Of a stretch of DNA of 40,133 nt, positions 27,001 through 30,000 are shown piece after piece. The stretch is from Granulicella sp. Lineage in GTDB: Bacteria > Acidobacteriota > Terriglobia > Terriglobales > Acidobacteriaceae. The position numbers were made by a program. The number at the start of each line of letters is the position of its first letter. The first letter of the stretch is position 1. Where the stretch lies: contig DAHWNL010000032.1 of NCBI GenBank assembly GCA_027339965.1, positions 1-40,133 on the forward strand, written 5' to 3'.

Positions 27001-30000
27001 ATCGTCGCCCATCTCCCTGGAGACCGCGTCGGCGACGGCCTCCACGCGCGCTTCGGCTTCCACCAGAGTTGGCTTGACGCAGGAGAAGTGAAGCTGGATT
27101 TCGGCATTGCCCGCGAGGATGGTGGTCTGGACGTCCGGGAACGTCTTGTAGATGGGCGCGCAGCGGGCGTCCACATGGCTCTCCGCAAGCAGCGTCATGC
27201 GCAGTTGACGGCGGGCAAGGTGGTTGGGGGATAGGGCGGCGGCCAGACGCGGCTTGCACTCGGAATCGAAGATCGGCTGAAGTTCAGCCGGAGGGCCGGG
27301 AAGAAGAGCGACGAGCTTGCGGCTGCCATTGAAGGTGATCTCGATCCACTGCCCAGGAGCGCTGCCGTTGCGGTTGGGAAGAATGGTTGAGCCATGGATA
27401 TGGTCCGCCTGGCGGCGGTTGTTCTCAGTCATCTGCAGGTTGCGGGAGGCGAAGCGTTGCTGTAACTCATCCAGAAGGAGTGGGTCACGCTCCAGGGCAA
27501 GTTGCAGGGCTTGCGCCACGCACTCCCGGGTCAGGTCGTCTTCTGTCGGTCCAAGGCCGCCGGAGAGAATCACGATATCAGAGCGTTTAAGGGCGACCTC
27601 GACGCTTAAGGTGAGGTGTTCGCGCTGATCTCCAACGATGGTTTTGAAGGCTACCTTCACGCCCAGCTCATTGAGGCCGGCTGTGAGATAGAGGGAGTTG
27701 GTGTCTTGCCGGTACGGCGTAAGCAACTCAGAGCCAACGGCGATGATCTCGGCGAGCATTTCTCTTCATGGTACCCTGCCCGGCCCCGCCTCAGAAGACC
27801 AACGGGATGGATGAAGCCATGGAGGGAGACTGAAAGAGGCTGATGTTGTTCGACGCCGGAGGGGGCTCGTGAGGCGCGAGATTAGCCGCAATTCGCGGAG
27901 ATCTCAGAAGAGCCGTGGCAGCCGCAGATTGCTTGCAGGGTGTGCCCAATGTTTCGGCCGAAGTTAAGCACAAAAAAGAGGAGATTTGCACAGATTTTTT
28001 GTGTTGCAAAGCTCGATTTTCGTGCGACGATTCTCTGCAACGGAAGAGAGATCTTCCAGAGAAGAGAGAAGAGTCGGAGGCAGCGAGGCTCGGACGCGAG
28101 ACTCACTTTGGGCAACCAGAGGCAAGCTGGCAAAGACAAGGCTCGCAGTCTTGGACGCCAAGAAGGAACGAAGGACCGTCGGGCTAGCCCGCAGGTTCTG
28201 AGGGACGACGAGGCCGTCAGGGAATGACCTGGGACCGAAGCCAGATCTTCGAAAGATTCGGACAGCAGAGGGGCGGGTTCTCGAAAGGGGACCGGCCCTT
28301 TTGCATTTGTTTGCAACCGGGGCCGGGTCTTGGGTGGGAGAGCGCCGCGGGGTGTTCCGGCCGCGGGCGGCGCGCAGGTTTCAAAGGTGGCGCCTCCCAG
28401 GTTTGGGTCTTGAGGTCGCGGTGGTCTTGTGGCGCCAAGTGTCTCCGCAGCCGGGTCAGATCAATGGCAGGCCCTGGATGCCCAGGTCGGCGTGATAGAG
28501 GGTGGAGTTGGTGGCCAGCGCCGCGCAGCCGTCATCCAGGAAGCAAAGGCCGATCAGGTCATTGCCGGCCACAATCAGTTCAGACTCCAGACCGCCGGTC
28601 TCGCGGGGGATCCACAAGCGGACGAGTCCGCGATGGCCGCGCAGAGAGGCTGCCACGTAGAGACTGCCATCGACATCAAACGCCATGCCCTGGGGGCGGC
28701 CGAGGCCGCGGTGGAAGATGCTGGTTTCGCCGTGAGGATTGATGGCGTAGATGGGCTGGTGAGAGCTGTAGGTCGGGGTGGTGACCAACAGTGTTCCATC
28801 GGGGTGGAAACAGAGGTGATAGAAGGCGGTAGAGGGCTCGAGCGTCGCGAAGACGAAGATCTCTCCGGCAGCGCCTGGTTGCTGCGGCCTGAGAACGAGA
28901 GGATCTTCGCGATCCGGATCCAGGGCTGCAGGGACGATTTTGAAGATGGTTCCTGAGCGGTCGCCGACAAACAGATTCCCGTCGCGATCGAAGGCGATGC
29001 CGGTGGCAATGCCCATGCCTTCGGCAAAGGTGGAGATGACTCCCGTTGGGGTGATGCGGTAGATGGTCCCTTCCGAGCGCGAGCTGGCATAGAGGTTGGC
29101 ATCGCGGCCAAACGCCAGAGCCGAGACATTGAGCAGGCCACGGGTAAAGGCTGTCACCTGCAGATCGCGAGCAACGCGATAGATGGAGACGGGAACCTGT
29201 TCTCCACGCGGACCGGAGACCATGGCGAAGAGGTTGCCATCGGCGTCCACGGCAGGGTTGGAGATGACGTGCAGATCTTCCACCATGGGAACGCCGATAT
29301 TGGCGTGGATGTGGTTGCTGATCAAACCATGGTTCCGCAGAGAGAGTCCGGAGGAGATGGCGCCCGATGGTACGCGAATCACGGCGCGCGTTGAACGAGC
29401 CATATCAAAGGTGGCCGGGATCTCTCCGAAGAAGGCTGACGGCAGTTGCGGTGGGTCAGAGGGATGGGCCGGGTCAGTGCCAAGCAGATGGGAGCCGAAG
29501 ACCTCAAAGCTGCCCCCCGGGATGGCCGAGCGGGGGTAGAGGCTGTCCAGACGTGGCGCTGCGGGAACGGACGAAAAGCGAGATGGGTGGAGCAGAGGCA
29601 TTTGATGGTTAGGGTATGCGTGGTGGAGCGGAGATGCAAATGGACGGCGAAAGGGTTCAGTGAATATGTGGCCCAAGGTGCTGAATGCCTGCTCCACAGA
29701 CAAAAGCAAGCAGGCCGGCTGCGACGTCGTCCAGCATGATGCCCATGCCTTCAGGGAGAGCCTCCAGGCGGCGGATGGGCCAAGGCTTGGTGATATCGAA
29801 GAGACGAAAGAGAACCAGCGCCAGCAGAGCATGCTTCCAGTCGGGCGGCACAAGGATGAGAGCGAAGAGTTGACCAGCCACTTCATCGATCACGACAAAG
29901 CCAGGGTCTTTGCGTCCAGCCTCGCGCGCGGTGCGAGTGGAGACGGGAACGCCGATCACGGTGACCATGATCGCCGCCACCAAAGTCGCCACGGCCAGGC

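Follow-up and report, generated by a model that had tools for sequence, protein, structure and literature searches.

A modular structured non-coding RNA of Acidobacteriaceae downstream of paired DnaA-box-like 9-mers

Results

An independent RNA gene beside cinA

Within the 40,133-nt stretch of Granulicella sp. DNA analysed here (the window), 696 nt separate cinA (26506-27759, minus strand) from a gene encoding 476 aa (28456-29886, minus strand; ORFs were named using Pfam), recovering the gap length of the initial annotation, which likewise had both flanking genes on the minus strand. In this gap, positions 28038 to ~28305 of the plus strand very probably constitute an independent gene for a structured non-coding RNA of ~268 nt (Table 1). 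We infer, rather than map, the 5' and 3' ends at 28038 and ~28305: both sequence conservation and the covariance model begin at 28038 (CAACGG), and 27950-28037 is therefore promoter, lying outside the RNA. Hence the length of 320-350 nt originally proposed is too great, as it takes in ~88 nt of conserved promoter. The plus strand was assigned on three grounds that favour it, namely the frequency of G-U pairs, the promoter and the T-run.

The gene does not travel with its surroundings. No neighbours were common to several genera, using both Pfam on 135 flanking ORFs from 34 loci and an all-against-all comparison of flanks, and the RNA gene occupies unrelated loci from one genus to another, standing alone and distant from dnaA and dnaN. 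It therefore has the attributes of an independent small RNA gene, namely its own promoter (with putative hexamers), its own terminator and unconserved neighbours. The fold, the terminator and the unshared neighbours agree with the previous description of a stand-alone structured RNA on the plus strand, ending in its own terminator. The same description called it antisense to its neighbours, and it is indeed on the opposite strand, but it overlaps neither ORF, and the neighbours vary between genera. There was no conserved reading frame among 27 copies: the longest plus-strand ORFs comprised 13-100 codons, differing in place and frame, and ATG was absent altogether in two copies, consistent with the earlier finding of no coding signal.

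Table 1. Coordinates of the RNA gene, its putative promoter elements and its structural features in the window
Feature	Position	Strand	Remarks
Distal DnaA-box-like 9-mer TTAAGCACA	27964..27972	+	8/9 to TTWTNCACA; aligns with the distal boxes of 71 distinct promoters
Proximal DnaA-box-like 9-mer ATTTGCACA	27984..27992	+	8/9; 20 bp past the distal 9-mer; starts at -54 from the putative start
Putative -35-like hexamer TTGCAA	28004..28009	+	Identified by eye in a TSS-anchored listing; relatives have cTTGCAt there
Putative weak -10-like hexamer ACGATT	28027..28032	+	17 nt past the -35; assigned by position only
Non-coding RNA including terminator, ~268 nt	28038..28305	+	Core model match 28038-28264
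5' hairpin P1, GGAAGA-GAGA-UCUUCC, GNRA loop	28042..28057	+	Sequence nearly invariant
Closing helix (long-range), 5' strand GAAG	28061..28064	+	Partner 28247-28250
Hairpin with 2x2 internal loop, consensus GAG-AA-UCG-GCAA-CGA-GA-CUC	28085..28104	+	Helices 3 and 4
GNRA hairpin module CUUUGG-GCAA-CCAGAG	28106..28121	+	Helix 5; unit multiplied in longer members
Hairpin with conserved CCGA in loop	28227..28246	+	Helix 10
Closing helix, 3' strand CUUC, then conserved single strand GAAAgAUUCGGA	28247..28250	+	Alignment and covariation
Intrinsic terminator: GNRA-capped G+C stem, then TTTTGCATTTGTTT	28269..28312	+	9/12 pairs with double changes

A conserved fold of variable module number

The plus strand of 27950-28315 folds at -147 kcal/mol, compared with -119.7 +/- 5.1 kcal/mol in shuffled sequences (z -5.4), and the RNA proper at -114 kcal/mol, compared with -89.8 +/- 4.8 kcal/mol (z -5.0; none of 200 shuffles was equally stable), upholding the earlier claim that the region folds better than shuffles; the minus strand gave z -2.9. 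The hairpin and T-run previously reported as a terminator are also present, with a core stem of -22.6 to -24.4 kcal/mol, or -32.2 kcal/mol with the U-tract pairs counted.

The covariation originally described is now stronger: when applied to 26 sequences, RNAalifold returned 54 pairs, with compensatory double changes in 32. In an alignment of 53 distinct sequences to the model, 94.8% of cells were paired, relative to 33-51% with partners slid, and double changes were found in 30 of the 42 pairs, with none of 500 shuffles reaching any measure. Pairing was near-complete both in helix 1 (P1; 99.4% of cells, double changes in three of six pairs) and in the closing helix 2 (100%), at one position of which AU occurred in 32 sequences, GU in 16 and GC in three. 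Double changes affected five of six pairs in helices 3 and 4, and four of six in helix 10, in which 94.3% of cells were paired. The conserved fold hence comprises a near-invariant 5' GNRA hairpin, a 4-bp helix joining 5' GAAG to 3' CUUC, three internal domains and the terminator. A possible 4-bp loop-tail pairing of CCGA with UCGG was noticed by eye in the alignment, and is beyond the support of covariation because the core is invariant.

Members of the family range from 250 to ~490 nt in length through extra GNRA-capped hairpin modules, such that natural variants bear between three and ten GNRA hairpins. The previous view that the RNA is built of hairpin modules is upheld for part of it, with module number differing among copies, and the variation is much larger than the one additional module then noted. 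A GNRA loop was predicted for 136 of 215 hairpins, compared with 34 of 896 in shuffled sequences, and GCAA, GAAA, GCGA or GAGA account for 131 of the 161 predicted tetraloops. The modules are too diverged for Tandem Repeats Finder, which detected no array in either of the long members, L014 and L017.

Distribution and expression

The RNA belongs to a family outside Rfam that, within the searches made, is limited to some of the Acidobacteriaceae. Rfam 15 had no matches across the whole window, and only noise (E 5.4-6.5) in 27700-28500 at E values up to 10, nor did it match the RNA in the loci of eight relatives. A covariance model (R1), built without the terminator, scored 163 bits (E 4e-46) on the window RNA. 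A covariance-model search identified carriers in 20 of 100 other genomes of the window's genus, the same count as before, and the RNA occurs in at least 13 of the 142 sampled genera of Acidobacteriaceae, making this a family-wide RNA rather than the Granulicella RNA first suggested. Carriers are some soil and bog Acidobacteriaceae, including cultured ones, such as records titled Granulicella. As the other 80 genomes of the genus do not have it, complete genomes among them, the RNA cannot be essential. No full-length copies were found outside the Acidobacteriaceae, and pattern matches in other phyla were discarded as chance, scoring at most 32.3 bits with the covariance model. A link to mobile elements was likewise rejected, with no matches in viral contigs, using a pattern for the 5' motif that only some members of the RNA family fit, and none in plasmids. 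PRTRC and SRAP genes lie near the L012 locus, and a tRNA near L028, neither being general.

The RNA is expressed in nature, as environmental RNA libraries contain it without its flanking genes. In three metatranscriptome runs, all from one study, contigs spanned only 28046/28056-28288, with cinA and the downstream gene having zero cover; one contig was 202 nt and 100% identical, and another was 233 nt with a depth of 134, with neither strand nor ends being readable from these contigs. The match of X3's 2329-nt contig was limited to 28046-28183, with unlike sequence on both sides.

Paired 9-mers upstream of the promoter

Because a consensus scan of 27600-28600 gave no sigma-70 promoter, the hexamers of the window count as inferred; at the place of the -10, relatives carry TAnnAT or AATATT. 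Two direct 9-mers, 20-21 bp apart, precede the promoter. In a set of 71 distinct promoters, 64 had a proximal box and 59 a distal box that matched TTWTNCACA at 7/9 or better, and 56 had the spacing of 20-21 bp. The proximal box started at -66 to -63 in 39 promoters and at -55 or -54 in 25; it was not recognisable in seven, and most proximal boxes start with A, not T. The genome-wide density of matches at 8/9 or better is only 0.54 per kb.

Exact matches to TTTSCAC-N12-15-TTTSCAC numbered eight in five genomes, with three for the reversed control. Three of the eight were promoters of the RNA, and another three lay just upstream of dnaN, in three of the five genomes: in the dnaA-dnaN interval, in the parB-dnaN interval, and past a peptidase gene. 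The window's own genome has a canonical TTATCCAC in the corresponding region upstream of dnaN. No cluster of DnaA boxes was found within 1.5 kb of dnaA in six genomes (this one and five relatives). Elsewhere in this genome, one strong triple-box site precedes an unrelated gene, and a cluster of four box matches at the start of contig C39 appears by eye to be the end of an insertion sequence. Pairing between the RNA and the origin-like region was also considered and set aside, with duplex folding energies of -193 and -177 kcal/mol compared with a mean of -200.5 +/- 10.4 kcal/mol for 150 random segments, by a method unsuited to sequences of this length.

Discussion

The reading we favour is of a DnaA-controlled, trans-acting RNA that functions as a multivalent protein binder, to which, as a whole chain, we assign a probability of roughly 0.45. 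Its first step is probable: transcription would start at CAACGG from a sigma-70-type promoter, controlled by the two direct 9-mers 20-21 bp apart, with the pair apparently shifted by one helical turn toward or away from the start between lineages. Two observations lead us to interpret the 9-mers as DnaA boxes: they conform to TTWTNCACA, and their paired arrangement also occurs upstream of dnaN, in the origin-like region. On this interpretation, the RNA would be one of the outputs of DnaA, the replication initiator. According to PMC11317965, the DnaA-box consensus is TTATCCACA, DnaA serves as a transcription factor where boxes are paired, and the E. coli protein favours boxes 2-3 bp apart, whereas the gap here is 11-12 bp. 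Alternatively, another factor that likewise binds near dnaN may recognise these boxes.

The second step is tentative yet plausible, being that the RNA might act in trans as a multivalent binder, either a sponge or a scaffold, for a protein, a role that the earlier description had also raised. The hairpin modules would then be repeated binding sites for this partner, enabling lineages to tune the capacity of the RNA through the gain and loss of modules, and coupling a post-transcriptional response to the status of DnaA; the bound protein could itself act on replication or the cell cycle. The full form of this proposal, in which DnaA on two phased boxes drives an abundant GNRA-hairpin RNA that sequesters or scaffolds a protein, is more doubtful still. 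Were DnaA control correct, the status of the replication initiator would be linked to RNA-based regulation, of which no described example was found in the literature searched, and the RNA would become the first demonstrated non-coding output of DnaA. In its full form, the proposal would give a little-studied phylum a new class of RNA and add a new branch to the DnaA regulon. Well-supported new RNAs that are structured and several hundred nucleotides long are uncommon, and the Acidobacteria are a dominant soil phylum in which RNA regulators are almost unstudied. The system is directly testable, given its covariation-backed fold, natural expression, module variants, cultured carriers and dnaN-type promoter element.

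An unlikely alternative to a protein-binding RNA is a base-pairing small RNA, possibly dependent on Hfq, that would use the unpaired AGAGAG after the 5' hairpin and GAAAAAUCGGA before the terminator against mRNAs. The genome encodes Hfq, with three matches above the cut-off, and the gene is equipped with a promoter and a U-tailed terminator of its own, features that leave an Hfq mechanism possible; moreover, the best-conserved sequence of the RNA is at the 5' end and just before the terminator. However, short-word complementarity within its own genome was at chance level only (best match 15 nt, E 0.08), the purine-rich stretches are unable to pair with Shine-Dalgarno sequences, the candidate seed is partly locked in the closing helix, and a variable count of structured modules would be unusual in a seed-type small RNA. 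It is less probable again that function resides in a three-dimensional architecture, with GNRA tetraloops making tertiary or intermolecular contacts, as in OLE, ROOL, GOLLD and raiA, and any protein being optional. The prevalence of GNRA caps, the long-range helices and multi-branch junctions, and the high conservation of loop and junction nucleotides would all fit such an architecture, yet no tetraloop receptor was identified, a length of 250-490 nt is below that of most large orphan RNAs, the large orphan families in Rfam have no match here, and the changing module number speaks against a single fixed architecture.

That the DNA is the functional element, with the paired boxes forming a datA-like titration site or DARS-like reactivation site for DnaA and the transcript being a by-product, is highly improbable: it would account for the conservation of the boxes and their pairing upstream of dnaN, but not for the conservation of more than 250 nt of the transcribed part, with compensatory changes that are meaningful only in RNA, nor for the seven cases in which the RNA persists behind a promoter lacking a recognisable proximal box. 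It is scarcely credible that the region encodes a short protein, or that it serves cinA or the downstream gene in cis, as a leader or as an antisense element. Both strands have ORFs of 71-144 codons that overlap this region, but none keeps its place or frame across copies, two of 27 copies have no ATG, the neighbours differ between genera, and the RNA's terminator faces the 3' end of the next gene.

The multivalent, DnaA-controlled RNA that we favour has partial parallels among known RNAs. According to its description in PMC8959179, CcnA of Caulobacter is an origin-located RNA that CtrA presumably activates and that base-pairs with the ctrA and gcrA mRNAs; compared on that description, it is similar in being a non-coding RNA tied to a master regulator of replication and the cell cycle, as we propose here, and dissimilar in that the present RNA is found at varied loci with DnaA-type boxes. 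The Acido-1 RNA motif (RF01686) is a candidate non-coding RNA of Acidobacteria (Weinberg 2010, PMC2864571). Its model has 64 positions, relative to the ~268 nt of the window RNA, and it matched neither the region nor, in a search whose control also matched nowhere, this genome. Like CsrB/RsmY/RsmZ and CrcZ, the RNA is a stand-alone, terminator-ended transcript of a few hundred nucleotides, with repeated hairpin or motif units that vary in number between species, and a dedicated, here putative, activator site upstream. Unlike these RNAs, which have GGA or A-rich motifs, its loops are GNRA, and it has no Rfam match; CsrA (PF02599) had no match in this 98.9%-complete genome, with the control positive in three named genomes. 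OLE, ROOL, GOLLD, HEARO and raiA are covariation-supported, multi-domain RNAs of unknown function that are restricted to particular lineages, relative to which the RNA described here is smaller, variable in module count and without an Rfam match. It also shares with 6S RNA (RF00013) the property of being abundant, structured and stand-alone, with a regulatory role that is putative here, although 6S RNA is a rod with a central bubble, and this RNA is multi-branched without matching RF00013. A 6S identity for the window RNA was rejected, as the RF00013 match is instead at C24:20071-20259 (53.4 bits), the bona fide 6S RNA of this genome.

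A structured RNA between cinA and an SGL-like gene

Both the 696-nt gap between cinA and the gene for a 476-aa SMP-30/gluconolactonase-like (SGL-like) protein, and the absence of a conserved reading frame across copies, held up on re-analysis. So did the claim that the plus strand folds better than its shuffles (27950-28315: -147 vs -119.7 ± 5.1 kcal/mol, z -5.4), the z score of the minus strand being just -2.9. The region is present as a single copy within its own genome, and is closed by a G+C hairpin with a T-run. BLASTN matched 30 of 400 other genomes of the family; beyond the closest relatives, these matches comprised a 5′ block of 35 nt from 28038 (CAACGGAAGAG..AUCUUCC..GAAGAGAG, 91-97% identity between genera), and a 3′ block spanning GAUCUUCGAAA..CGGA and the terminator. 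In 29 extracted copies, transcript conservation starts at CAACGG, with promoter-like hexamers and two repeated 9-mers 5′ of it. Hence the RNA is predicted to be ~268 nt here, shorter than the initial annotation had proposed (Table), and this segment also folds better than its shuffles (-114 vs -89.8 ± 4.8 kcal/mol, z -5.0).

Table. Positions of the RNA, its neighbours and related features
Feature	Contig, locus or genome	Position	Strand
cinA	window	26506-27759	-
RNA (predicted ends)	window	28038-~28305	+
SGL-like gene	window	28456-29886	-
Hfq-domain match	C70, own genome	190085-190270	
Hfq-domain match	C27, own genome	55886-56032	
Hfq-domain match	C17, own genome	31656-31820	
Three TTTCCAC-type boxes	C17, own genome	67520-67580	-
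Two tandem RNA copies	L008, relative	1516-2353	
tRNA gene	L028, relative	1189-1261	opposite to RNA
Paired boxes upstream of dnaN	G129, relative	between dnaA and dnaN	
Paired boxes upstream of dnaN	G032, relative	between parB and dnaN	
Paired boxes upstream of dnaN	G291, relative	after peptidase gene	

The RNAalifold consensus of a MAFFT alignment of 26 copies contains 54 pairs, of which 32 show compensatory double changes, and these counts are free of any bias from model fitting. The alignment of 55 matches (53 distinct) to R1, our covariance model of the family (231 positions, 42 pairs, terminator excluded), is biased towards structure because it is fitted to the model; in it, 94.8% of cells are paired, versus 33-51% with partners slid by 1-3 columns, double changes occur at 30 of the 42 pairs, and 0 of 500 shuffles equalled any measure. 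In the predicted fold, a 5′ hairpin with a GNRA loop is near-invariant, and four base pairs join 5′ GAAG with 3′ CUUC. There are also a hairpin interrupted by a 2x2 internal loop; at least one GNRA hairpin module; another hairpin, enclosed by a long-range UACAAC/GUUGUG helix; a hairpin with a conserved CCGA in its loop; a conserved A-rich single strand with CGGA at its 3′ end; and a GNRA-capped terminator. Across 29 members, 136 of the 215 hairpins predicted have GNRA loops, versus 34 of 896 in shuffles, the energy model favouring such loops equally in real and shuffled sequences. The shortest members measure 250 nt, and added modules bring others to ~481-491 nt (loci L014 and L015).

No Rfam 15 family matched the window at gathering score, or the RNA at eight relatives' loci, and nothing rose above noise in the RNA region at E up to 10. 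The Acido-1 model gave no match, although its control likewise matched nowhere. No description of the family turned up in the papers searched. That the RNA is real is very likely (probability about 0.9), and it represents a family of structured RNAs in the Acidobacteriaceae that had not been catalogued before. Separately, 6S RNA was rejected as an identity, as the genome's 6S is located elsewhere.

Expression in environmental RNA

Contigs from three metatranscriptomes of one study were compared with 27600-28600, within which they cover only 28046/28056-28288. One contig (202 nt) is 100% identical; a second (233 nt, depth 134) has 7 differences; and one from run X3 (2329 nt, depth 390) matches 28046-28183 with 9 differences, between unrelated sequence on both sides, and may come from a relative whose middle part differs, or else be an assembly chimera. 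In all three metatranscriptomes, cinA and the downstream gene had zero contig cover. As contaminating DNA would cover the flanks as well, these contigs, which lack strand and ends, support a discrete, relatively abundant transcript from the RNA locus.

Distribution and genomic context

The RNA had been described as one of Granulicella, but is more widespread: in a family sample of approximately one genome per genus, R1 matched 12 of 150 other genomes, or 13 of 142 sampled genera when the window's own genome is included. Within the window's genus, 20 of 100 other genomes matched, and several complete genomes lack the RNA. In a class sample, R1 matched 1 of 19 genomes of its own family, 1 of 19 of one other family (36 nt at 25.5 bits), and 0 of 112 across eleven further families. 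A scan for the 5′ motif, using one genome per species, found at least 120 loci; among the 80 scanned with R1, 31 were full-length members, with record titles naming only Acidobacteriaceae, Acidobacteria/Acidobacteriota, Granulicella or Alloacidobacterium, 21 matched at ≤32.3 bits confined to the short 5′ end containing the searched pattern, and 28 had no match. Some genomes have two or three copies; at L008, two full copies start 531 nt apart, each with its own box pair and terminator.

No neighbour was common to different genera, whether by Pfam (135 flanking ORFs, 34 loci) or all-against-all comparison of flank translations. Synteny occurs within genera only, involving cinA and the SGL-like gene, hydantoinase B and cyclophilin, or SRAP. 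The SGL-like gene was located in five genomes of the genus that lack the RNA, with cinA at the same locus in three. At the RNA-less loci L201, L203 and L204, 867-917 nt separate the two genes; other long ORFs lie inside, those of L201 being unlike those of L203 and L204, hence the slot holds variable cargo. Neither plasmids, nor viral contigs searched with a partial pattern, contained a match. Judged by its context, the RNA gene is trans-acting. At L028 only, a tRNA gene lies ~60 nt past the RNA terminator.

Possible modes of action

The RNA might act as a multivalent, sponge-type protein binder, a proposal we make tentatively and with some doubt. It is the best fit because similar, sequence-constrained hairpins vary in number, loop and junction nucleotides are near-invariant, and the RNA is abundant. 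The main rival is base pairing with targets, yet no target stood out in complementarity searches of the window's own genome. That genome lacks CsrA. Hfq is present, and three Hfq-domain matches exceed the Pfam cut-off; two of these lie in ORFs of 113-153 aa and score far below the first.

Paired boxes and DnaA

The paired 9-mers upstream of CAACGG are putative DnaA boxes. Judged against the consensus TTWTNCACA in 71 distinct promoters, 64 have a proximal and 59 a distal box at ≥7 of 9 positions, spaced 20-21 bp apart in 56; genome-wide, the density of matches at ≥8 of 9 is 0.54 per kb. The variable box positions (A/T at 3, C/G at 5) coincide with those at which the consensus is degenerate. The start of the proximal box lies between -66 and -63 in 39 promoters, and in 25 it lies one helical turn away, at -55/-54. 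One group of lower-scoring members (55-138 bits; L135, L137, L149, L153, L155 and L084) has no recognisable boxes upstream, meaning the RNA can exist without them.

Across five genomes, of which four are complete and the fifth consists of 4 contigs, the exact paired pattern had 8 matches, versus 3 for a reversed control: three in RNA promoters, three just upstream of dnaN (Table), and two elsewhere. The three regions upstream of dnaN are mutually homologous and include an A+T-rich stretch. In the window's own genome, the matching origin-like region has a canonical TTATCCAC beside TCTTCCACC, and far fewer boxes than the relatives' loci L072, L075 and L079; here dnaN lies ~6 kb from dnaA, on opposite strands (C56:24200-26300; C56:31348-31833).

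From these motifs, DnaA probably controls transcription of the RNA, and the promoter would thereby tie it to the replication-initiator system. This reading is weakened by the 2-3 bp gap between boxes that E. coli DnaA prefers, according to PMC11317965; by the lack of any box cluster adjoining dnaA itself; by the seven of 71 promoters missing the proximal box; and by the triple-box site on C17, with boxes 20-21 bp apart, which precedes an unrelated gene. The factor may have a further target here, or the boxes may be there by chance. Two of its boxes lie within a 21-bp tandem duplication, followed by a TTGACC hexamer, and the N-terminus encoded by the gene after it resembles that of a secreted protein.
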